A DNA stretch of 64,000 bases from Flavobacteriales bacterium (GTDB lineage Bacteria > Bacteroidota > Bacteroidia > Flavobacteriales_F > PHOS-HE28): assembly GCA_017987115.1 (NCBI GenBank), contig JAGNUG010000005.1:669-64668 (forward strand), in the 5' to 3' direction. Below are positions 105 to 24,852 of the stretch, piece by piece. A model generated the notes under the pieces. It searched no databases, was not told the origin of the DNA, and was given only the letters and a program-made list of their open reading frames with translations. Every line of letters begins with the position of its first letter. Position 1 is the stretch's first letter. The position numbers and the translations under genes were made by a program.

Positions 105-456
105 ATAGCCGACCATCGGGCAAGGCAACGCGTCCTAGAAAGACCGTGGACGTGTTCATTGAGCTCACCCTGGTGTTGCGGCCCTTCAACTTCAGCACGC
201 TCAGCACCAAAGCCTATGGATATGCTGCGTGATCCCACGTTCCCGGCGTTGCTGATCGTGCTCTATGGGCTATTGCCGGTGTATGTTCTGGACCGGATGA
301 TGGAGCGGAAGGCGCGACCCCGTGCGTTGATACCCAGTTAGCGCTGCTTGAACCAACGGCTCTGTGCTATCTTCAGTTTCTTAACCACCGATAACTATAC
401 ACATGTTAGTACCAAAGCCTTGGGCAAGATCCGCAGCCCATGGGAAGCCTTGGACC

Positions 457-566
457 TGTAAAACGCTATTGGGCTTTACATGCCCCAATAGTGAACTAGA
501 AACCACTCCAAGCACAAACCAAGTCCGGAAATAAACCCTACTGTTGTTACAACCGACTAGTTGTAG
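457..566 (+). repeat. attC-like module equal to the right arm of the class B repeat, standing alone
   Basis: Near-identical to the last ~110 nt of every B copy (aaaacgctattgggctttacatgcccc...ctgttgttacaaccgactaG|TTGTAG). AAC(gc)TATTGGG can pair with CCGACTA-GTT. It lacks the FN3 fragment and the B left arm. Confidence 0.5.
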
Positions 567-3338: not shown

Positions 3339-3388
3339 ACCACATGCCTCCAACCGTTGCGCGTTGCTTTAGCCAGACCGTTGTATCC
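3333..3388 (+). repeat. Short attC-like site
   Basis: GGCTAAAC (3333-3340) overlaps the stop codon. Internal inverted repeat GGCTAAA/TTTAGCC. R' GTTGTAT at 3380-3386. Confidence 0.5.
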
Positions 3389-3431
3389 AATAACATCAAG
3401 CGGCCCCCCACCCCCTACTCCACCACCACCA

Positions 3432-4103
3432 TCACTGCCCCATTGCAGAGCGTAGCGTGTAAATGTTCATCGGGTACGGGCCACCAATTGCCGGTGGCAA
3501 AAGGCCGGTGGCGTCGGGTACGGGGGCAGTAGTGCGGTTCGCAGAGGTATACGGCCACTTTATCCAAGAGACGTAAGCACGGCGTAACGGGCCAAATGAC
3601 ACGAGCCTTACGTGGCAAGCAGTTAAGTGCGCAGCACTGGCCAGTGGCTGTTCGGTTGGTGGTTGAGGCTTCTTGGTTCTTGGCTTTTTGGCTTGTGGTA
3701 GTAGGGCCAAGGGTTCTGGGTAGCATTGGCGCAAGAGCTGGCAGCGCAGTGCATTGGGCAATGCAAAGGCCTGGAACTGTTCGGTAGGCAATAGGCGCAG
3801 GTAATGAGGTGTCAGGTAGTTGTCCTCCACATGCTTTTTCCAGCTTTTGAACGCTTTCACCAATTCATCCGCACGGGATTGCTGCCCCTTAGGCAAGGCG
3901 GTTAGTTGTGTACGCACCTTAGTTTCTTCCTGCAAGAGGATACGCCGCAATGCCTTGGCCAATGCACGGGGTGGCACCAGCCGGCCGGCGCGGGGTTCGC
4001 AATAGCACAGGAATACTTCGTTGAGGGTGACCGTGACCTGCACAGTTGCAACAGCTCGCTTGCGGCATGGCACTTCAATGCCTATGCTCGCGCTCCTACT
4101 CAT
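3432..4103 (-). CDS. Hypothetical protein (candidate iteron-binding initiator or regulator)
   Basis: 223-aa ORF in the high-GC cassette, divergent from the FN3 gene, with the iteron array immediately upstream. The first ~130 aa look protein-like. The C-terminal part is Pro/Lys-rich, so the true 3' extent is uncertain. No family recognised. Confidence 0.45.
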   Translation of the reverse strand: MSRSASIGIEVPCRKRAVATVQVTVTLNEVFLCYCEPRAGRLVPPRALAKALRRILLQEETKVRTQLTALPKGQQSRADELVKAFKSWKKHVEDNYLTPHYLRLLPTEQFQAFALPNALRCQLLRQCYPEPLALLPQAKKPRTKKPQPPTEQPLASAAHLTACHVRLVSFGPLRRAYVSWIKWPYTSANRTTAPVPDATGLLPPAIGGPYPMNIYTLRSAMGQ

Positions 4104-4269
4104 GGGTAGGGTCGTATTTGTTCAGGTATGTGCCTAAACCCAGTACCATGGGCAGATGCGCTCTACCGGTTGCTTCTGCTTCCTTGCGCGTGCGTACCAT
4201 ACACGCTCTGTTGTGCGTGGTATGGAACACACATTCGAAGATCTGGCTGCTATCTGGATCGGGTCTGCT

Positions 4270-4540
4270 TGGAACATGCGCGTGTTACCGGTCATCGTGC
4301 GCATGTTGCATCCTATCACGGGCATTTCTCCCGCTATCATGCGCATGTTAGCACCTAACACGGGCATTTCTCCGCCTATCATGCGCATGTTACATCTTGT
4401 CACGAGCAGTTCTCGGGCTATCATGCGCATGTTGGATCCTAACTCGGGCATTTCTCCGCCTATCACGCGCATGTTAGCGGCTATAACGGGCATATCTTGG
4501 GCTATTATGCGCATGATGGAATGTATAACGCGCATGTATT
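4270..4540. repeat. Iteron-like tandem array: about 6.5 units of 42 bp
   Basis: The palindrome ATGCGCAT (or ACGCGCAT/GTGCGCAT) sits at 4298, 4339, 4381, 4423, 4465 and 4507, exactly 42 bp apart, with half-period copies near 4276 and 4528. Each unit also carries CACGGGCATTTCTCC, and a further copy of that motif lies at 4604-4618. Confidence 0.85.
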
Positions 4541-4660
4541 GATATTTCTTGTGGGTGCCATTTGTTAAGACTTTGGTAGAACCCGAAAAAATAAACGTCC
4601 TGTTCACGGGCATTTCATGGGTTTATTAACAATATTCGTTTTTTTCACATGTCACGGCCA
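4541..4660. promoter_or_regulatory. AT-rich tract next to the iterons (candidate unwinding element or promoter region)
   Basis: gatatttcttg...gaaaaaataaacg...gtttattaacaatattcgtttttttcac is clearly AT-rich inside an otherwise ~58% GC cassette. Confidence 0.3.
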
Positions 4661-4757
4661 TACTCTTTGCGGTTAAAGTCCTTGGCCAGCAACACAGCCG
4701 AGGCCAGAGACAAACGGACGCACTCGAAGTCGAACGGAACCTAAACAACGAACAACC

Positions 4758-5375
4758 ATGAAACTGATCAAAGCAGGAACAAGCGGCTTAAATGCCGTGA
4801 GCCTCATCGCAAAGGCGGAGTACGTGGAAGGCAAGATGAAGACCAATCTGAACTTCGCCACCCCGAACCCGGCTATCACTGAGGTTACCGCTGCACGGGA
4901 AGCATTGGTAACGGCCGTAGCGCAAGCTGAAAGCCGTTCCTTCGCCGACCTCGCAGTACGCAACGCCCAGACCGTGGTCCTTCGCACCTTACTGGTGAAC
5001 CTTGCACGCTATGTGAATAACGTAGCCCTGGGTGATGTGGACAAGGCCGTGAGTAGCGGTTTTGAGCCGGCCAAAAAGCCGGAGCCCAGCACCCACTTGG
5101 ACCCACCGGTAAAACTAGAGGCGCGCGTAAGCGACTTCGAGGGTAGCGTGGACCTCTTGTGGAAGCGCGTGGAGGATGCCCGCATGTACCAGGTGTACAT
5201 CAACGACGGCGACCCATCGGATGCCACCAAGTGGTCGATGGTAGCTGTTAGCAGTCGCACGCGTACCCGCATTACGGATCTGGTACCGGGTAAGTTCTAC
5301 TCGTTCCGCGTAACCGCCCTCGGTCGTATCGGGGAAGGTCCCGCGAGCGATGTGGTAAGTGGCCGCGCCGCGTAA
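4758..5375 (+). CDS. Fibronectin type III domain protein (helical N-terminal half + C-terminal FN3)
   Basis: 205 aa. The C-terminus 'LLWKRVEDARMYQVYIND...TRITDLVPGKFYSFRVTALGRIGEGPAS' matches the FN3 pattern (W, Y-x-V, L-x-PG-x-Y-x-F-R-V-x-A). High GC. Its last ~110 nt and the 230 nt downstream are the master copy of the class B repeat core. Confidence 0.7.
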   Translation: MKLIKAGTSGLNAVSLIAKAEYVEGKMKTNLNFATPNPAITEVTAAREALVTAVAQAESRSFADLAVRNAQTVVLRTLLVNLARYVNNVALGDVDKAVSSGFEPAKKPEPSTHLDPPVKLEARVSDFEGSVDLLWKRVEDARMYQVYINDGDPSDATKWSMVAVSSRTRTRITDLVPGKFYSFRVTALGRIGEGPASDVVSGRAA

Positions 5376-5603
5376 GCGACCCCACAACTTCTTCTTCACT
5401 AGCATCCGCCCCGGTCCCGCAAAGGCCGGGGCGGGGTGCGTTAAGGGGTGCGTATGAACCGGTGAAGTATCTATCTTGGTGGGCCGGTTGTAATAAAACG
5501 CTATTGGGCTTTACATGCCCCACTAGTGAACTAGTAACCACTCCAAGCACGAACCAAGTCGGGAGATGAACGCTGCTGTTGTTACAACCGACTAGTTAGA
5601 ACA
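5262..5603 (+). repeat. Master copy of the class B repeat core (FN3 3' end + terminator + attC-like right arm)
   Basis: Near-identical to the right-hand ~340 bp of the full-length B copies (B3 shares only the first ~220 bp). Ends ...caaccgactaG|TTAGAAC (R' at 5595-5601). Confidence 0.85.
5406..5434 (+). terminator. GC-rich hairpin downstream of the FN3 gene (also present in every B copy)
   Basis: CCGCCCCGG (5406-5414) pairs with CCGGGGCGG (5426-5434): a perfect 9-bp stem with an 11-nt loop. No U-tract, so intrinsic-terminator function is inferred only. Confidence 0.5.
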
Positions 5604-6881: not shown

Positions 6882-7094
6882 ATGAAATATAGAATTGACG
6901 AGATAAATATTGGAGATGAAGTGATTTTTGAATCGACCTCTATCCAGAGCAATTATGACTTATATTGGAAAGTTATCGGAAAGAATAAAACTCAATTGAT
7001 GATAGAACTTAAAGAAATGGGACACGATGAAAATTGGACAATCGAAATATTTGAAGTCAAAGGAGTTCTACCGACAGGAAGAAGTGAAAAATGA
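6882..7094 (+). CDS. Small hypothetical protein (second gene of a two-gene cassette)
   Basis: 70 aa. Starts 11 nt after the preceding stop and lies in the same cassette. Confidence 0.45.
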   Translation: MKYRIDEINIGDEVIFESTSIQSNYDLYWKVIGKNKTQLMIELKEMGHDENWTIEIFEVKGVLPTGRSEK

Positions 7095-7100
7095 AAGCCA

Positions 7101-7600
7101 GCCGCTAATCGAGTAGGCGGCCCCGCCGCTGAATAGCGACGGGGTGCGCCTCGCACACCACTGTACCCTTCGGCTTCGCTCTGGGTAAACCAAGCGGGTT
7201 TCGCAGACAGTGGTTCGTTGAGGTCTGGAGCTACGTTCTGGCAGTGATCTTACATGGCTTCGTACCCGCATTACGGATCTGGTACCGGGCAAGTTCTACT
7301 CGTTCCGCGTAACCGCCCTCGGCCGTATCGGGGAAGGTCCCGCGAGCGATGTGGTAAGTGGCCGCGCCGCGTAAGCGACCCCGCAACTTCTTCTTCACTA
7401 GCATCCGCCCCGGTCCCGCAAAGGCCGGGGCGGGGTGCGTTCAGGGGGTGCGTATGAACCGGTGAAGTATCTATCTTGGTGGGCCGGTTGTTATAAAGTG
7501 CTATTGGGCTTTACATGCCCCACTAGTGAAATACAAACAACCCCAAGCACGAATCAAGTCCGGAAATAAACCCTACTGTTGTTACAACTGACTACCTTTG
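7101..7600 (+). repeat. Class B composite attC-like repeat, copy B1 (~500 bp)
   Basis: Starts GCCGCTAAT-CGAGTAGG, with R'' complementary to the cassette start at 6391-6398. Hairpins at 7116-7150 and 7164-7187, FN3 fragment at 7222-7374, hairpin at 7405-7433, then the right arm. R' is degenerate (actaCCTTTGG). Confidence 0.85.
7222..7374 (+). pseudogene. Start-less FN3 C-terminal gene fragment inside B1
   Basis: 50 sense codons plus TAA, directly after a conserved in-frame TGA. The last 36 codons differ from the FN3 gene (5265-5375) only by two synonymous GGT>GGC changes. Confidence 0.7.
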
Positions 7601-7668
7601 GGACTAATATCACTGATAAAAAAATGAAAGAACAAAATCAATAACATCTTACCTAAACAGTAAACATT

Positions 7669-7839
7669 ATGAACAAAAGAAAAATATTATTGATAATTTT
7701 AATTATCCTAAATTCATTAGTGCTAATGGGACAAATTTATCCCGAAGGAGCTCCTCCATTTGCAAGAATTGTGAACATAGTTTTCCTAGTTTCAAGTTTG
7801 GCGTTTTTTATTGCAATGACAATACAAAAACGTACTTAG
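7669..7839 (+). CDS. Small membrane protein (56 aa, below the ORF-track cutoff)
   Basis: ATG at 7669, MNKRKILLIILIILNSLVLMGQ...VNIVFLVSSLAFFIAMTIQKRT, with two hydrophobic helices. It is the only plausible ORF in the cassette between B1 and B2. Confidence 0.35.
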   Translation: MNKRKILLIILIILNSLVLMGQIYPEGAPPFARIVNIVFLVSSLAFFIAMTIQKRT

Positions 7840-7854
7840 ACAACAAGCCAGAAA

Positions 7855-8358
7855 TGCCAATCGAGTAGGCGGCCCCGCCGCTGAATAGCGAAGGGGTGCG
7901 CCTTTCACACCACTGTACCCTTCGGCTTCGCTCTGGGTAAACCAAGCGGGTCTCGTATACAGCGGTTCGTTAAGGTGTGGAGCTATTTTCTGGTAGTGAT
8001 CGAGCATGGCTTCGTAGCTGCATAACGGATCTGGTACCGGGCAAGTTCTACTCGTTCCGCGTAACCGCCCTCGGTCGTATCGGGGAAGCTTACACTGCGA
8101 GCGATGTGGTAAGTGGCCGCGCCGCGTAAGCGACCCCACAACTTCTTCTTCACTAGCATCCGCCCCGGTCCCGCAAAGGCCGGGGCGGGGTGCGTTAAGG
8201 GGCTGCGTGCGAACCAGTGAAGTATCTATCTTGGTGGGCCGGTTGTAATAAAGTGCTATTGGGCTTTACATACCCCAATAGTGAAATAGTAACCACTCCA
8301 AGCACACACCAAGTCCGGAAATAAACCCTACTGTTGTTACAACCGACTAGTTAGCGGC
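7855..8358 (+). repeat. Class B composite repeat, copy B2
   Basis: Starts TGCCAAT-CGAGTAGG and ends actaG|TTAGCGG (8350-8356). Variant with a TAA stop and a 3-nt in-frame insertion in the FN3 fragment. Confidence 0.85.
7974..8129 (+). pseudogene. Start-less FN3 C-terminal fragment inside B2
   Basis: 51 codons plus TAA. GP>AYT in-frame insertion, T>S, R>C, and synonymous changes. Confidence 0.65.
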
Positions 8359-8359
8359 A

Positions 8360-9268
8360 ATGCAAATGAGGACAAGCGTAGCCATATTGATACAGTTCCT
8401 GACGGTAGGCCTCGCCACTTCGCAGAACGACAAGACCAGTGAGCGAGAAACGCAGATCTTGAAAGACAATCGAGTAGCCATTAAGAGGACGTGGTCAACG
8501 ATCTACCAAGACAACGACAACGAGATTCAGATAGATAGAAATCTCCAGTTGTATGAACAGTTCGATAGGAATGGAAACATCATTCTTCGACTTCGATTCA
8601 ATAACGTCGGCGACACTTTAGAAAAGAACACGTTTGTCCGTAATGACAAAGGACAAGTATTCCGTGAGTATCGAGACTGCCTTGACACTTGCCTAGTTTG
8701 GTATTGGGAAAGCTCGTATGATCAAGGTAAACTTGACAATGCGACTGCATTCTCGAGAGACAGTTCTGTTGTCGCTTCTTCAAAATATTTCTACAATGAA
8801 CAGGGCCTTGTTTCGAAATATTACTCGAGCAGACGAGAGGAGACTGTGGTTTCGACTAGCCTTGACGATGGCCGTAGCGGAGATCCAATCACAAATTATC
8901 ACACCATATACGAGACAGATTACGATACTACAATTGTTGAATATTCAGGAGACACAATACGACACTCGTCAAATCATGAGTCACAATCTTCGCTTTATAC
9001 TGAGAAGTACAACGAGGATGGCTTCATGTTGGAAGAGTCAGCGCTGTATAATTCGAAACTTTTGAATTATACGGAACGTTATGAGTATGATAGCTTTGGG
9101 AACAGGGTAATTAGGCTTATAACCAGTAGCAATATGAATGAGCCATACTTAATGGAAAAGTATATCTACGATGCGCGTCATCTTATGGTGAAAATGGAAT
9201 ACTATCACACCAAATTGGATATACCTCAGGTGATTTCAGAATTCGAATATGAACTTTTGGACGAATAG
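8360..9268 (+). CDS. Secreted protein with YD/MORN-like short repeats
   Basis: 302 aa with signal peptide 'AILIQFLTVGLATSQ'. Recurrent 'Y-x-Y-D/N-x-x-G' units ('YFYNEQGLV', 'YEYDSFGNRV', 'EKYNEDGFM'). Confidence 0.6.
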   Translation: MQMRTSVAILIQFLTVGLATSQNDKTSERETQILKDNRVAIKRTWSTIYQDNDNEIQIDRNLQLYEQFDRNGNIILRLRFNNVGDTLEKNTFVRNDKGQVFREYRDCLDTCLVWYWESSYDQGKLDNATAFSRDSSVVASSKYFYNEQGLVSKYYSSRREETVVSTSLDDGRSGDPITNYHTIYETDYDTTIVEYSGDTIRHSSNHESQSSLYTEKYNEDGFMLEESALYNSKLLNYTERYEYDSFGNRVIRLITSSNMNEPYLMEKYIYDARHLMVKMEYYHTKLDIPQVISEFEYELLDE

Positions 9269-9276
9269 AACGCACT

Positions 9277-9710
9277 GCCGCTAATCGAGTAGGCGGCCCC
9301 GCCACTGAATAGCGACGGGGTGCGCCTCTCACACCACTGTACCCTTCGGCTTCGCTCTGGGTAAACCAAGCGGGTCTCTTATACAGCGGTTCGTTGAGGT
9401 GTTGAGCTGCTTTTAGGTAGTGATCGAGCATGGCTTCGTACCCGCGTCACGGATCTGGTACCGGGCAAGTTCTACTCGTTCCGCGTAACCGCCCTCGGTC
9501 GTATCGGGGAAGGTCCCGCGAGCGATGTGGTAAGTGGCCGTGCCGCGTAAGCGACCACGCAACTTCTTCTTCACTAGCATCCGCCCCGGCCCCCCAAAGG
9601 CCGGGGCGGGGTGCGTTTAGGGGCTGCGTGTGAACCGCTGAAGTATCTATCTTGGTGAACCTATACGCAATGCCCTTGGGGACACTGCGCATAGCCGAAA
9701 CGTTAGCGTG
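9277..9710 (+). repeat. Hybrid site B3: class B left part joined to the right arm of a short attC
   Basis: B-type sequence up to ...gaagtatctatcttggtg (9656), then aacctatacgcaatgcccttggggacactgcgc...cGTTAGCG, which is homologous to 2910-2961. R'' GCCGCTAA (9277-9284) is complementary to the cassette start at 8351-8358. Confidence 0.8.
9398..9550 (+). pseudogene. Start-less FN3 C-terminal fragment inside B3
   Basis: 50 codons plus TAA. I>V plus two synonymous changes in the conserved part. Confidence 0.65.
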
Positions 9711-9719
9711 CATGGCAAA

Positions 9720-10250
9720 ATGACGACAAGTGATTACAATATGTCTGACACCGACAACCAATTAGTCCTGACAATCAAGAGAAAACCAAACTGGCTCATT
9801 CTCTCTATTACTGGTTTGTGGACACTTGGCTGGCTCGGTATTACTGGGACAATTATTTACGGACTTGCGACCGACCCTGACAAACTTGACGGTGAAATTG
9901 CTCTTTTTATGACTTTCTTTTTTCTCGCTGGACTATTTGTACTCAAAATTTTCCTTTGGCATTTAAGAGGACAAGAAAAAATTACAATTGACGACAAAGA
10001 ATTTCGCATAGACAAAGTTGGGACTATCCTGACAATTCCGAGAAAATATGAAGTTGACCAAATCGACTACATTTCAAATACAGAAAGACCAACAACACCG
10101 AAATGGATAAAATTTTGGGGGCTTGGAGGCGGACAAATTGAATTTGTATACCTAGGACAGACTAAGTATTTCGGACAGACATTAAAAGTTAAGGAGGCGA
10201 CTAAAATAATTGATGAAATGAAAGAAAAATTAAAAGCCACGACACGCTGA
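9720..10250 (+). CDS. Membrane protein (2 TM helices)
   Basis: 176 aa from the first ATG (the ORF opens at GTG 9708). Helices 'WLILSITGLWTLGWLGITGTIIYGL' and 'IALFMTFFFLAGLFVLKIFLW'. Confidence 0.55.
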   Translation: MTTSDYNMSDTDNQLVLTIKRKPNWLILSITGLWTLGWLGITGTIIYGLATDPDKLDGEIALFMTFFFLAGLFVLKIFLWHLRGQEKITIDDKEFRIDKVGTILTIPRKYEVDQIDYISNTERPTTPKWIKFWGLGGGQIEFVYLGQTKYFGQTLKVKEATKIIDEMKEKLKATTR

Positions 10251-10745
10251 TCGAGTAGGCGGCCCCGCCGCTGAATAGCGACGGGGTGCGCCTCTCACAC
10301 CACTGTACCCTTCGGCTTCGCTCTGGGTAAACCAAGCGGGTCCCGCATACAACGGTTCGTTGAGGTCTGGAGCTACTTTCTGGTAGTGAATGCACACGGC
10401 TTCGTACCCGCATTACGGATCTGGTACCGGGCAAGTTCTACTCGTTCCGCGTAACCGCCCTCGGCCGTATCGGGGAAGGTCCCGCGAGTGATGTGGTGAG
10501 TGGCCGCGCCGCGTAAGCGACCACGCAACTTCTTCTTCACCAGCATCCGACCCGGTCCCACAAAGGCCGGGGCGGGGTGTGTTCAGGGGCTGCGTATGAA
10601 CCGGTGAAGTTTCTATCTTGGTGAGCCGGTTGATATAAAACGCTATTGGGCTTTACATGCCCCATTAGTGAACTAGAAACCACCCCAAGCACCAACCAAG
10701 TCCGGAAATAAACTCTACTGTTGTTACAACCGACTAGTTAGTGGT
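10243..10745 (+). repeat. Class B composite repeat, copy B4
   Basis: Starts CACGCTGAT-CGAGTAGG, complementary to the cassette start 9703-9710 (TTAGCGTG) in 7 of 8 positions. R'' overlaps the stop codon. Ends actaG|TTAGTGG. Confidence 0.85.
10364..10516 (+). pseudogene. Start-less FN3 C-terminal fragment inside B4
   Basis: 50 codons plus TAA. All four differences in the conserved 36 codons are synonymous (GGC, GGC, AGT, GTG). Confidence 0.65.
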
Positions 10746-10763
10746 AAGCGGATAACGAGCTAA

Positions 10764-11204
10764 ATGAAAAGACTATTCGAAATACTTCTATTTACTGTTA
10801 CCCTAGTTTCTTGTTCGGACAATGGAAAGGAAAATGGAGAATCAGGTACTTCTAAATATTACATGGACGATCCTGTAGAAATGATTAAAATCAGTGAACA
10901 TAAAGACCTTATTGGGTCAGAAGTTAGAATGGTCGGTGATATGTCGTCAGATAACGTAGAGCAGCTTCAGGACTCGTGTTCTAAAATTTTCATTAGTAGA
11001 AAGACAAGCGACGAAGTATTGAGTATCATAAGCTACTTCGGCCGAAGTGGTTGCACTAACTATCAAGCAAATATTGACATTCGTGGAGATTCGTTAGTTC
11101 TTCTCTTAGAAAACACAACTAACCTTGTATGCGCAGAGCGAGAATACTATAGGGTCACCTACCATGTAAATACGTCTGGTAAGAATTATATAATAACAAA
11201 ATAA
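10764..11204 (+). CDS. Hypothetical lipoprotein
   Basis: 146 aa with lipobox 'FTVTLVSCSDNG'. Confidence 0.6.
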   Translation: MKRLFEILLFTVTLVSCSDNGKENGESGTSKYYMDDPVEMIKISEHKDLIGSEVRMVGDMSSDNVEQLQDSCSKIFISRKTSDEVLSIISYFGRSGCTNYQANIDIRGDSLVLLLENTTNLVCAEREYYRVTYHVNTSGKNYIITK

Positions 11205-11209
11205 AGCCT

Positions 11210-11336
11210 ACCACTAACATGCTCCTGCCGCAAGCCGCCCTCGTCCCATTGACAACTCCCGTTGAAGCGATGAACACTTCGTCCAGGAACAAGATCACGA
11301 AAGGCGGCTTGCGGCAAGCGCAGGCCCGTTGTAGCG
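11210..11336 (+). repeat. Class A attC-like site, copy 3
   Basis: ACCACTAAC-atgctcct-GCCGCAAGCCGCC...GGCGGCTTGCGGC-aagcgcaggccc-GTTGTAG, with a 13-bp perfect inner stem. R'' is exactly complementary to the cassette start at 10738-10745. Confidence 0.85.
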
Positions 11337-12846: not shown

Positions 12847-13350
12847 GCTTATAATCGAGTAGGCGGCCCCACCGCTAAAATTTCAACGGGGTGCGCCTCG
12901 CACACCACTGTACCCCGCGTCTTCGCTCGGGGCAGGCCAAGCGGGTCCCGCAGACAGCGGTTCGTTGATGTGTGGAGCTACGTTCTGGTAGTGATCGTGC
13001 CTGGCTTCACACCCGCATTACGGATCTGGTACCGGGCAAGTTCTACTCGTTCCGCGTAACCGCCCTCGGTCGTATCGGGGAAGGTCCCGCGAGCGATGTG
13101 GTAAGTGGCCGTGCCGCGTAAGCGACCACGCAACTTCTTCTTCACTAGCATCCGCCCCGGTCCCATAAAGGCCGGGGCGGGGTGCGTTAAGGGGGTGCGT
13201 GTGAACCAGTGAAGTATCTATCTTGGTGGGCCGGTTGTAATAAAACGCTATTGGGCTTTACATGCCCCACTAGTGAACTAGTAACCACTCCAAGCACGAA
13301 CCAAGTCGGGAGATGAATGCTACTGTTGTTACAACCGACTGGTTGGCGCT
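12847..13350 (+). repeat. Class B composite repeat, copy B5
   Basis: Starts GCTTATAAT-CGAGTAGG, complementary to the cassette start 12203-12210 (TTCTAAGC) in 7 of 8 positions. Hairpin-2 variant TACCCCG...CGGGGCA (12911-12934). Ends actgG|TTGGCGC. Confidence 0.85.
12969..13121 (+). pseudogene. Start-less FN3 C-terminal fragment inside B5
   Basis: 50 codons plus TAA. The conserved part differs only by synonymous GGC and CGT. Confidence 0.65.
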
Positions 13351-14208: not shown

Positions 14209-14710
14209 AGCGCTAATCGAGTAGGCGGCCCCGCCGCTGAATAGCGACGGGGTGCGCCTCTCACACCACTGTACCCCGCGTCTCCGCTCGGGGCAGGCCA
14301 AGCGGGTGGCGCATACAACGGTTCGTTGAGGTCTGGAGCTACGTTCTGGTAGTGAATGCATTCGGCTTCACACCCGCATTACGGATCTGGTACCGGGCAA
14401 GTTCTACTCGTTCCGCGTAACCGCCCTCGGCCGTATCGGGGAAGGTCCCGCGAGCGATGTGGTAAGTGGCCGCGCCGCGTAAGCGAAGACGCAACTTCTT
14501 CTTCACTAGCATTCGCCCCGGTCCCACAAAGGCCGGGGCGGGGTGCGTTAAGGGGGTGCGTGCGAACCACTGAAGTTTCTATCTTGGTGGGCCGGTTGTT
14601 ATAAAACGCTATTGGGCTTTACATGCCCCACTAGTGAACTAGAAACCACTCCAAGCACACACCAAGTCCGGAAATAAACCCTACTGTTGTTACAACCGAC
14701 TATTTATGCA
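14209..14710 (+). repeat. Class B composite repeat, copy B6
   Basis: Starts AGCGCTAAT-CGAGTAGG, complementary to the cassette start 13343-13350 in 7 of 8 positions. Shares the hairpin-2 variant with B5. R' reads t|TTATGCA (14703-14710). Confidence 0.85.
14330..14482 (+). pseudogene. Start-less FN3 C-terminal fragment inside B6
   Basis: 50 codons plus TAA. Two synonymous GGC changes in the conserved part. Confidence 0.65.
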
Positions 14711-18306: not shown

Positions 18307-18813
18307 TGCGCACGATCGAGTAGGCGGCCCCGCCGCTAATTAGCGACGGGGTGCGCCGCTCACACCACTGTACCCTTCGGCTTCGCTCTGGGTAAACCAA
18401 GCGGGTCTCGTATACAGCGGTTCGTTAAGGTGTGGAGCTTCGATGTGGTAGTGAATGCACACGGCTTCGTAGCCGCATAACGGATCTGGTACCGGGCAAG
18501 TTCTACTCGTTCCGCGTAACCGCCCTCGGTCGTATCGGGGAAGCTTACACTGCGAGCGATGTGGTAAGTGGCCGTGCCGCGTAAGCGACCACGCAACTTC
18601 TTCTTCACTAGCATCCGCCCCGGTCCCGCAAAGGCCGGGGCGGGGTGCGTTAAGGGGGTGCGTATGAACCGGTGAAGTTTCTATCTTGGTGGGCCGGTTG
18701 TTATCAAACGCTATTGGGCTTTACATGCCCCACTAGTGAACTAGAAACCACCCCAAGCACGAATCAAGTCCGGAAATGAATGCTACCGTTGTTACAACCG
18801 ACTAGTTGTCAGT
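18307..18813 (+). repeat. Class B composite repeat, copy B7
   Basis: Starts TGCGCACGAT-CGAGTAGG, complementary to the cassette start at 16897-16905 in 8 of 9 positions. Mosaic of B2-like features (TAA stop, AYT insertion) and a B4-like patch (gaatgcacacgg). Ends actaG|TTGTCAG. Confidence 0.85.
18429..18584 (+). pseudogene. Start-less FN3 C-terminal fragment inside B7
   Basis: 51 codons plus TAA. Same GP>AYT in-frame insertion as B2. Confidence 0.65.
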
Positions 18814-23168: not shown

Positions 23169-23345
23169 GTTATCCCAAAGCTACACCCAACTTTTCTACT
23201 TCTTCACCACATGCTGCAACAGGAACTGCTCAGCATCCAACACTTCGATCTCCGAAAAATGATAGTCGTTGCGGTCGTATGTAATAATGCATTTGCACTT
23301 GGCATCCAGTGCGGAGTAATACTCCAAGCCGCATCAGCTGATCAC

Positions 23346-23582
23346 CACATCAGCAAATCAGCTAATCCTCTCTCCCCCTACCACTGCATCCCCTGATCTT
23401 GTTGCATACGCTGCATCATCGCTTGCATCTTACCCTTGTCGCCCATCCACATCAGCTGATCAACACATCAGCTAATCAACACATCAGCAAATCAGCTAAT
23501 CCACTCTCCCCCTACCGCCGCATCCCCTGCGCCTGCTGCATACGCTGCATCATCGCTTGCATCTTGCTCTTATCACCCATCA
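23346..23582. repeat. Tandem duplication (~103 bp x2, period 134 bp) of the ffh 3' end plus downstream sequence
   Basis: 23346-23448 and 23480-23582 align (cacatcagcaaatcagctaatcc.ctctccccctacc.c.gcatcccctg...ctgcatacgctgcatcatcgcttgcatctt...). Copy 2 is the real ffh stop region. Copy 1 would encode ...MQAMMQRMQQDQGMQW*. Confidence 0.8.
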
Positions 23583-24852
23583 TCTTCATCATCTTGCGGG
23601 TCTCTTCGAACTGCTTCATGAGCTTGTTCACCTCGGGTACGTTGGTACCACTGCCGGTCGCGATCCGTTGCCTGCGAGAGCCATTAATGATCGATGGATT
23701 CTTGCGCTCGTCCGGCGTCATGCTGTTGATGATCGCTTCGATCCCTTTGAACGCATCGTCGGGTATGTCCATGTTCTTCATGGCCTTGCCCACACCGGGG
23801 ATCATGCCCATCAGGTCCTTCATGTTACCCATCTTCTTGATCTGCCCGATCTGGTCCAGGAAGTCATCGAAACCGAACTGATCCTTTGCGATCTTCTTGT
23901 TCAGTTCACGGGCTGCCTTTTCATCGAACTGGTCCTGCGCACGCTCTACCAAGGATACCACGTCGCCCATGCCCAGGATCCTGCCGGCCATACGGTCCGG
24001 GTGGAACTCGTCGATGGCTTCCATCTTTTCACCGGTACCGATGAATTTGATCGGTTTATCCACCACACTGCGTATGCTCAAAGCGGCACCACCGCGCGCA
24101 TCGCCATCCAATTTGGTGAGCACCACGCCGTCGATGTTCAAGCGCTCGTTAAAGGCTTTTGCTGTGTTCACCGCGTCCTGCCCGGTCATGGCATCCACCA
24201 CGAACAAGGTTTCTTGTGGATTGATGGCTTTTTTCACACGCGCGATCTCATCCATCATGGCCTCATCGATCGCCAAACGACCGGCGGTATCAATGATCAC
24301 CAAGGTGTGCCCGTGTGTTTTGGCGTAGGCAATACCCTTCTCCGCAATGCTTACTGGGTTCTTGTTCTCGCGATCGCTGAATACTTCGATCTCCAGTTGC
24401 TTGCCCAGCGTTTCCAACTGGTCAATAGCCGCAGGACGGTAAACGTCGCACGCCACCATCAACGGCTTGCGACCTTTTTTCTTCAGGTGGTTCGCAAGCT
24501 TACCGGTAAAGGTGGTCTTACCCGATCCTTGCAGACCGCTCATAAGTATCACCGTTGGGTTACCGCTCAGGTTGATGCCAGCGCTTTGGCCGCCCATCAA
24601 CTCAGCCAATTCATCCTGTGCCAGTTTTATCAGTAGCTGTCCAGGGCTAATACTGGTCAACACATTCTGGCCCAAAGCCCTTTCCTTTAGTCGATCGGAA
24701 AATTCCTTGGCGGTCTTGAAGTTCACGTCGGCATCCAGAAGCGCACGTCGCACTTCCTTCATGGTCTCGGCAACGTTGATCTCCGTTACTTTCCCTTGGC
24801 CTTTTAATACTTTGAACGCTCTTTCGAGCTTGTCACTGAGGTTATCGAACAT
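23512..24852 (-). CDS. ffh: Signal recognition particle protein
   Basis: 446 aa. SRP54 GTPase motifs 'GLQGSGKTT', 'DTAGR' and 'TKLDG', with a Met-rich M-domain tail. Confidence 0.95.
   Translation of the reverse strand: MFDNLSDKLERAFKVLKGQGKVTEINVAETMKEVRRALLDADVNFKTAKEFSDRLKERALGQNVLTSISPGQLLIKLAQDELAELMGGQSAGINLSGNPTVILMSGLQGSGKTTFTGKLANHLKKKGRKPLMVACDVYRPAAIDQLETLGKQLEIEVFSDRENKNPVSIAEKGIAYAKTHGHTLVIIDTAGRLAIDEAMMDEIARVKKAINPQETLFVVDAMTGQDAVNTAKAFNERLNIDGVVLTKLDGDARGGAALSIRSVVDKPIKFIGTGEKMEAIDEFHPDRMAGRILGMGDVVSLVERAQDQFDEKAARELNKKIAKDQFGFDDFLDQIGQIKKMGNMKDLMGMIPGVGKAMKNMDIPDDAFKGIEAIINSMTPDERKNPSIINGSRRQRIATGSGTNVPEVNKLMKQFEETRKMMKMMGDKSKMQAMMQRMQQAQGMRR

Follow-up and report, generated by a model that had tools for sequence, protein, structure and literature searches.

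The attC sites described so far in integrons are 57 to 141 bp long (PMC3053210), and the VCRs (Vibrio cholerae repeats, ~120-130 nt) of sedentary chromosomal integrons are homogeneous repeats that stand after unrelated cassettes and carry cassette-specific outer R-box bases. Equally familiar are the insertion of introns in attC, intron fragments with 5' truncations within cassette arrays, and attI sites. Group IIC-attC introns insert in the attC bottom strand at TTGT/T inside the R'' box, antisense to the cassettes (PMC7923331, PMC3001079), and in the Léon-Roy model, as it is cited in PMC3053210 and PMC7923331, homologous recombination between such introns forms cassettes. Here we describe a repeat of ~495 bp, named B, which occurs seven times (B1-B7; x-numbers denote cassettes) in the cassette array of a Flavobacteriales bacterium, within a 64,000-nucleotide stretch of contig JAGNUG010000005.1 (hereafter the window). 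The first-pass annotation had taken each copy for a single attC of ~500 nt, with arms pairing over 490 nt. We found that each B is a patchwork of four unrelated parts, namely an R'' stump, an intron stump, a fragment of an FN3 gene and a copy of an attI-type site, so the two ends belong to different sites, a split attC and an attI-type site. B is thus a chimeric scar rather than one recombination site, and the full history that we propose for it below is probable.

BLAST of B4 against the window recovered all seven copies where they had been annotated, mutually 89-93% identical, together with a partial copy (5262-5599) that is continuous with an intact FN3 gene and a 104-nt piece standing alone (459-562). 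The repeat is confined to the array, with zero copies in the 43 kb of the window outside it. Independent assemblies and runs reproduce both the contiguity of FN3 gene and attI-like module (L165; L-numbers denote comparison loci, i.e. contigs from metagenomes or metagenome-assembled genomes, MAGs) and the B5-x6-B6 junctions (L177), which rules out an assembly artefact as the source of the repeats. A scan of a genome collection with the right-end 16-mer GTTGTTACAACYGACT gave 118 chance matches, the pattern being too short, and 0 homologous to B.

The cassette-specific R'' box reported at the extreme left of B was confirmed: when the 7 nt before the constant ATCGAGTAGG were compared with the reverse complement of the start of their own cassette, 43 of 49 positions matched. 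Of 5040 permutations of the pairing, just 2 scored this high, namely the true one and that in which B1 and B3, which have identical stumps, change places; B2 is the weak case. At the right end, the proposed junction ...CCGACTAG/TT (a slash marks the breakpoint) holds exactly in B2, B4 and B7 and is mutated in B1 (C/CT), B5 (GG/TT) and B6 (T/TT). The three hairpins reported within the repeat (7116-7150, 7164-7187 and 7405-7433) and the FN3 fragment are all present. B resembles the VCRs in being a homogeneous repeat after unrelated cassettes with cassette-specific outer R-box bases, but VCR-type sites, at 57-141 bp, form unbroken imperfect palindromes (PMC3053210), whereas B is ~495 bp, non-palindromic and made of four unrelated pieces.

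The left end and its intron relatives

To identify the left part of B, metagenomes were scanned with the 21-nt left-end motif CGAGTAGGCGGCCCCRCCRCT, and 44 loci were found, whose homology to B is limited to B positions ~8-172. Beyond this part, most of the 44 loci run into a reverse-strand gene. In L122 the gene is a 438-aa open reading frame (ORF) with RVT_1 (E 7e-40) and GIIM only and no endonuclease domain, and it is preceded by a group-II-D1D4-3 (RF02001) match of 125 bits, full copies generally scoring 120-131 bits. RF00029 (domains V-VI) covers the last 83 nt of the L122 intron with 36.9 bits (E 5e-6), below the gathering score of 40. The intron terminus is ...CCTACTCGAT, and 43 of the matches extend far enough upstream for the junction to be scored; in 39 of these the cassette strand before the motif reads ...YA/AT, with 33 distinct upstream 12-mers; all seven B copies are likewise preceded by ...YA/AT at the intron end. 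Restoring the exon junction of L122 yields the R'' box GCATACAAC, followed by an ordinary attC stem and ...CCG/TT. Furthermore, tblastn with the intron protein detected its last ~25 residues, partly decayed and antisense (minus), in 7/7 B copies and nowhere else in the window.

Since this insertion point and orientation equal the published behaviour of group IIC-attC introns (PMC7923331, PMC3001079), we read the left 165 nt of B as the 3' end of such an intron at its canonical insertion point, the class being assigned by the insertion site, orientation, ribozyme domains and endonuclease-less reverse transcriptase (RT)/maturase of full-length relatives. It is only through these relatives that the stump can be recognised: Rfam gave no match in the window at gathering scores and none at E <= 1 over 6900-10900, the stump alone lying below detection. 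The idea of a normal-size attC directly after R'', with the rest of B as a separate cassette, was rejected, as the next 165 nt are intron. Hairpin 1 (7116-7150) falls by position in the stump part equivalent to the 83 nt under RF00029 in L122, and hairpin 2 (7164-7187) lies in the 3'-terminal part of the coding region, within an insertion common to an intron subfamily (L129, L132, L139, L142 and others). The two-sided change of hairpin 2 in B5 and B6, which had been offered as weak support for structural selection on a giant attC, therefore sits in intron sequence. A search for natural introns with the B5/B6 hairpin variant or with the patch of B4/B7 found none.

The stump is similar to S.ma.I2-type introns, e.g. 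S.ma.I2 parting aadB from its attC, in several respects: the insertion lies in the bottom strand at TTGT/T in R'' and antisense to the cassettes, the RT/maturase has no endonuclease domain, and a gene with its R'' stump is parted from the rest of the attC (PMC3001079, PMC7923331). Unlike these, B keeps only the last 165 nt of the intron, and the remainder of the attC is replaced. Such introns have been called few in integrons (PMC3001079), whereas seven stumps lie here within 12 kb of one array. Antisense 3'-terminal fragments beside a cassette are also represented by the 5'-truncated UHB.F1 and H.ha.F1/F2 (PMC7923331); those, however, are single, independent truncations, while one FN3 junction is common to the seven B copies behind seven cassettes.

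Every B starts at the exact intron 3' terminus beside a different R'' stump, which might suggest mobilisation in the manner of a SINE (short interspersed nuclear element): B would be a non-autonomous element sharing the intron 3' end and copied in trans by the intron RT into new R'' sites. ORF-less mini-introns of the same family that have spread within arrays (L151, L138/L158) point the same way. This is nevertheless hardly to be expected, given that B has no ribozyme sequence of domains I-IV (no Rfam match even at E <= 1; of the intron, only positions ~1754-1896) and hence could not reverse splice, and that its right end is the site-specific G/TT instead of an intron 5' end. The mini-introns are ~600-750 nt long, with Rfam D1-D4 matches and no RT ORF (two copies in L151, and L138 and L158); those of L151 occupy two neighbouring attC sites.

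The FN3 segment, the attI-type module and its recombinase

The FN3 part, the middle ~215 nt of B, comprises the last ~100 nt of the gene plus ~120 nt downstream of it. In B1 the intron and FN3 homologies overlap in a 12-nt microhomology (7261-7272, CGTACCCGCATT, CGTAsCCGCrT), which indicates a single illegitimate fusion of intron and FN3 gene. The GC hairpin and spacer that follow in B are found after the intact FN3 gene as well (5405-5493); the hairpin has no T-tract, and the terminator scan makes no call there. The intact gene with its hairpin, spacer and attI-like module is likely to be the parent of the right three-quarters of B, and the alternative of a short attC fused to a decayed FN3 cassette that then spread, which the first-pass annotation had listed, is nearly right. 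In other Flavobacteriales MAGs, the sequence homologous to the FN3 locus ends at the stop codon; the hairpin, spacer and module were accordingly rejected as native parts of FN3 genes. Three candidate B-like fusions (P0064, P0071, P0072) proved to be frameshifted FN3 genes.

The native context of the module is an integrase-like gene. In the lone copy, L172 and L145 the module comes right after the ...RSPxxxLDL C-terminus and stop codon of this gene, and its end is the start of the first cassette. In L172, a Flavobacteriales MAG, the C-terminus ...RSPLDDLDL and stop are followed by ~100 homologous nt ending TGTTACAACCCCATAG/TTATGCCC, by one cassette, which starts at ...CCCCATAG/TTATGCCC and whose attC has the R'' box GGGCATAAC, and then by chromosomal genes. 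L145 has the same order of gene and module, followed by attC sites of the two families of the window (T1 and T2, see below). The cassette after the lone copy has the R'' box TACCTACAA at 1129, which matches its own start in 9/9 positions. In all three loci, then, the module lies between the integrase-like gene and a first cassette that matches its own R'', with the crossover at G/TT. Alignment of the module across loci shows conserved blocks, and its right end carries an RYYYAAC-like box, 6 nt and G/TTRRRY, as in a double-stranded simple site. Based on position and behaviour, we name the right ~100 nt of B an attI-type site. The earlier view of the ~105-nt module as a complete attC in its own right does not hold, as its bottom strand folds like shuffled sequence (z = -0.11) and the lone copy has no R''. 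No similarity to the module was found in the 44 metagenome loci, either as an intron 5' end or as an attC remainder beside full-length introns.

Neither an intron stump nor an R'' that matches a cassette start precedes the two module copies whose ends lie at 560 and 5595 (the R'' match was judged by inspection for 560 and by search for 5595). Both are followed exactly after the G by distinct cassettes with an R'' matching their own start (9/9 and 8/9, respectively). Exchange at the module copies is thus independent of R'': because modules without a stump or matching R'' show the same precise G/TT exchange, the distant R'' of B is an unneeded relic. All eight module copies have different downstream cassettes and a breakpoint at the same base, which argues for site-specific exchange at the module rather than purely homologous spread.

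The module resembles the attI of an integron platform in lying between integrase gene and first cassette, in its RYYYAAC-like box, 6 nt and G/TTRRRY, and in the cassettes starting with TT. Unlike a usual attI, it is present in at least eight copies in one array, most of them detached from any integrase gene; its platform is co-oriented with the cassettes, and the recombinase is without the IntI-specific domain. This native recombinase (window 355-460, decayed; L171 9000-10195; L172 1-199; co-oriented with the cassettes) is extended by ~120 aa at its N-terminus and has a C-terminal tail like that of IntI. It scores 204 bits with TIGR02249 (cut-off 265) and 240 bits with NF040815, and its alignment with VchIntIA (PDB 2a3v) skips residues ~208-243, in agreement with the lack of the IntI-specific extra domain. 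The last 68 residues match 1936 database proteins at E <= 1e-8; the best 120 of these, which to judge by their source names come from several phyla, are without exception fragments (56-119 aa), and this points either to many contig breaks at a repeated sequence or to a large number of genomic stumps. Directly before the lone copy, the window at ~190-337 (AGCACCAAAGCCTATGG..., ending CCCAG/TTAGCGCTG at 337/338) looks like a second, more decayed integrase 3' end with an attI.

With both ends identified, the giant attC can be weighed. It would require the ~495-nt bottom strand to fold so that the R'' of a cassette pairs with R' across a ~480-nt terminal structure, with CGAGT and ACTAG as L box, in one site. 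The complementarity of R'' to its own cassette start speaks for it, as do six pairs (C-G, A-T, G-C, T-A, G-C, G-C) that can be drawn by hand beside the R box between TCGAGTAGG and CCGACTAG, and the position of the B3 insert, with R'' directly on one side and an intact T2 L''-L' stem directly on the other. In a nearest-neighbour model with R' restored, the mean R-box pairing probability was 0.97 (B1), 0.94 (B3), 0.49 (B4), 0.48 (B6) and 0.11 (B5), the five sites scored in register, B7 being out of register in that run. Sites with long variable terminal structures do recombine if delivered as single-stranded DNA, but under replicative conditions such structures cost up to 4 logs (PMC8946536).

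The sequence itself fits an attC poorly. R'' ends in ...TAAT, ...CAAT, ...TGAT or ...CGAT, not as the R''/R' consensus (RYYYAAC, GTTRRRY), whose boxes are the only sequence elements conserved in attC sites, demands: AAT stands for AAC in 7/7 copies, the C being replaced by the terminal base of the intron, so that a C·A mismatch lies next to the cleavage site. The GTT of R' is retained by B2, B3, B4, B5 and B7 and not by B1 (C/CTT) or B6 (T/TTA). The distance from R'' to the G is 426 nt (B3) to 498 nt, 3-4 times the known maximum of 141 bp. Outside the R box the copies form only a few end-to-end pairs, which vary from one copy to another, and the predicted folds show no conserved L''/L' box beside the R box. 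The whole-site fold (z = -1.7) is no better than that of shuffles, and the module alone gives z = -0.1. In contrast, the ordinary attC sites of the T1 family in the same array fold on the bottom strand into the canonical attC hairpin (z = -3.3, 24-29 of 34 end-to-end pairs). The complementarity of R'' is fully accounted for by descent from a normal attC split by an intron. In addition, the right end is of attI type, and copies without a stump or matching R'' exchange alike. As the equilibrium model does let the R box pair in a fully single-stranded 500-mer, the giant attC is quite improbable rather than impossible.

Features of B and of the array in the window (positions are those of the window unless stated)
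Feature	Position	Strand	Description
B copies by BLAST with B4	7103-7594, 7860-8357, 9279-9661 (hybrid), 10243-10745, 12854-13344, 14211-14706, 18314-18807		
B1, stump of the R'' of cassette x1	7101-7107	+	GCCGCTA; ends at the intron insertion point; complementary to own cassette start
Equivalent R'' stumps	7853-7859, 9277-9283, 10243-10249, 12847-12853, 14209-14215, 18308-18314		
B1, intron stump	7108-7272	-	Read as group IIC-attC intron 3' end (165 nt), with domains V-VI and the final ~25 RT/maturase codons; antisense to cassettes
Intron stumps, other copies	7860-8024, 9284-9448, 10250-10414, 12854-13019, 14216-14380, 18315-18479		
B1, FN3-gene 3' end	7261-7374	+	TAA at 7372-7374; 97% identity with the intact FN3 gene (4758-5375) over 5262-5337
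B1, 9-bp GC hairpin	7405-7433	+	Downstream of the FN3 stop; then ~60-nt spacer, 7434-7493
B1, attI-like module	7494-7595	+	Conserved small hairpin, GAAATAAACC, then TGTTACAAC-N6-G/TT
Module, other B copies	8249-8350, 10636-10737, 13241-13342, 14602-14703, 18704-18805		
B3 hybrid	9277-9702	+	As other B to the spacer (9661), then T2 L''-loop-L'-R' remainder CCTATACGCAATGCCC...GCGCATAGCCGAAACG/TT in place of the attI module
Lone module copy	355-560	+	Decayed integrase-like gene 3' end ...YTHVSTKALGKIRSPWEALDL (stop near 458-460), module 459-560, G/TT; native context
Intact FN3 gene with hairpin, spacer and attI-like module	4758-5595	+	Gene 4758-5375 (fn3), module 5494-5595; no intron stump, no matching R''
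T1 attC, internal control	11209-11328	+	Canonical hairpin, z = -3.3, 29/34 end-to-end pairs, R'' ...TAAC
Further T1 attC sites	near 1674, 6279, 12091, 15593, 16785, 19884		
Second composite family, example	L145, oriented positions 1355-2015	reverse	

Surroundings of the repeats

Densely packed small + strand ORFs of lower G+C fill the window from 1 to ~21,300, and this run is a cassette array. Downstream of ~21,300 lie housekeeping genes, folD, a DinB-family gene and ffh, plus proteins with type IX secretion system (T9SS) tails, which mark the host as a Bacteroidota; the homologues of the FN3 gene point to Flavobacteriales. The 64-kb window yielded neither an integrase gene nor a tRNA, and no Rfam family reached its gathering score. 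A 123-nt repeat in two tandem copies (87% identical) lies at 23332-23588, beside and overlapping the 3' end of ffh, with no tRNA there.

The ordinary attC sites of the array include the T1 family, of ~125 nt and seven copies, with ...TAAC in the left R'' and ...CCCG/TT on the right; its R'' boxes are complementary to the first bases of their own cassettes. Shorter T2 sites, e.g. 2890-2965, are also present in the array, and this family recurs in L122, L172 and L145. It is a T2 remainder that B3 carries: B3 derives from a deletion that joined its spacer to what is left of a T2 attC. L145 is a metagenome contig unrelated to the window, yet it has the same T1 family and the same unusual cassette start CTAGGGGC, with C, not T, after the crossover G (window 1785; L145 oriented ~2930 and ~3565).

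The intact FN3 gene belongs to a GC-rich segment, 3383-5375, which starts exactly at a G/TT junction (3382/3383) and has no matching R''. The segment contains a 223-aa ORF (-), 21/42-bp tandem repeats (4252-4576) and the FN3 gene (+). A ~200-aa ORF (-) is paired with an FN3 gene (+) in other Flavobacteriales MAGs too (L167, L168), and PHROGs and Pfam searches with the 223-aa and 159-aa reverse ORFs beside FN3 gave no family.

Proposed origin, spread and meaning of B

From this anatomy we infer the order of events, the mechanism of spread and any present-day activity. A group IIC-attC intron would have retrohomed antisense into the bottom strand of an attC inside R'' (top ...YA/AC), splitting the R'' stump from its site. 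In one ancestor, a deletion at the 12-nt microhomology would then have fused the last 165 nt of the intron to an FN3 gene at its 3' end; this gene sat just upstream of an attI-type site of ~100 nt, whose native place is right after a co-oriented integrase-like gene and which ends in G/TT. The resulting constant body would consist of intron stump, FN3 stump with hairpin and spacer, and attI. The right G/TT would be the crossover point of the attI-type site, double-stranded and needing no R'' partner, which is why a different cassette could be joined exactly at G/TT after each copy, while the left R'' would be a fossil of the original attC of the upstream cassette. Units of cassette plus B might move or duplicate via their own attI site. 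An intron may also invade an attC just upstream of an existing stump, whereupon homologous recombination between the direct intron repeats would delete the interval and leave a new cassette-specific R'' stump on the old body.

A contig of a sister assembly (L174, 3919-4436) gives the single direct piece of evidence on the spread. It has the arrangement x7-B-x3, joining a 492-aa cassette to a 302-aa cassette, and its B equals B7 to alignment column ~87 and B2 from column ~169, so the switch falls in the middle of the intron stump. This suggests that copies recombine homologously within the stump; L174 may be a real homologous recombinant or circle junction, or else an assembler path. Look-ups of cassette proteins for other arrangements gave this one variant contig, one confirmation (L177) and one null. 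A second composite family, found at five metagenome loci (L129, L135, L142, L145, L156), consists of an R'' stump followed by ~230 nt left of an intron of the same family, a decayed integrase-gene stump and an attI. It has one common junction behind three different cassettes, unlike the independent truncations UHB.F1 and H.ha.F1/F2, and argues that the swap of the upstream cassette with the body kept is a recurrent process. The Léon-Roy model, so far as it is set out in the papers citing it, likewise has recombination between intron copies joining separate sequences, and L174 and the families with a shared body fit that step. In B, however, the parts joined are an existing cassette and an attI-bearing body, where the model joins a gene and an attC, and no splicing or reverse transcription is implied.

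Could the copies instead be inert? In that case B would be a dead scar, multiplied and shuffled through nothing but homologous recombination, unequal crossing-over or gene conversion among the repeats, with no site-specific recombination since the chimera arose. The crossover of L174 inside the stump would fit, as would the mosaic sharing of variants (B2 with B7, B5 with B6, B5 with the FN3 parent), the mutated crossover base in B1, B5 and B6 and the lack of an integrase gene in the window. Yet the homology of the eight modules ends at the same base, G/TT, and each is then followed by a different cassette with a matching R'', while pure homologous exchange or duplication would bring common downstream sequence in some copies. 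We therefore consider inert relics unlikely, though less so than a giant attC.

Several points weigh against the chimeric-scar history that we prefer. Both the full-length intron and the intact integrase gene are absent from the window. The activity of the attI copies is deduced from breakpoints alone, and the recombinase, lacking the IntI-specific domain, is not the bona fide IntI by which an attI is defined. The stump segment coding for the C-terminus of the intron protein is 83% identical against 90-95% in its neighbours, a divergence that the model leaves unexplained. The crossover of L174 lies in the longest stretch identical between B7 and B2 (81 nt), where an assembler path could create it. 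The multi-step spread is also not the sole possibility, gene conversion between tandem platform units being another.

In the literature searched, we found no report of one chimeric body amplified seven-fold, of eight or more attI copies inside one array, or of an associated recombinase without the IntI-specific domain. Tentatively, at least eight working attI-type copies may have been spread on the amplified chimera and be run by a co-oriented Xer-like recombinase without this domain, allowing internal cassette capture, although we hold this to be doubtful.

For the attC family, the present analysis removes an apparent record-breaking site and puts a concrete, testable anatomy in its place. 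If the internal attI copies are active, cassettes would be captured at many internal points and not only at the array head, changing capture and ordering, and the intron stumps would serve as portable homology that re-links cassettes to attI sites. B would then be a natural case of group IIC-attC introns reshaping integrons by homologous recombination, a step that the Léon-Roy model, as cited, proposes but of which genomes offer few examples. Such Flavobacteriales arrays would come out of standard integron finders as integrase-less (clusters of attC sites lacking integron-integrases, CALIN). Complete integrons are reported to be nearly absent from Bacteroidetes (PMC9024848), and attC arrays of Flavobacteriales beside an integrase-like gene without the IntI-specific domain could explain this near-absence. 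The presence of that gene beside canonical Flavobacteriales attC arrays, a side observation here, may thus matter more than the anatomy of B.

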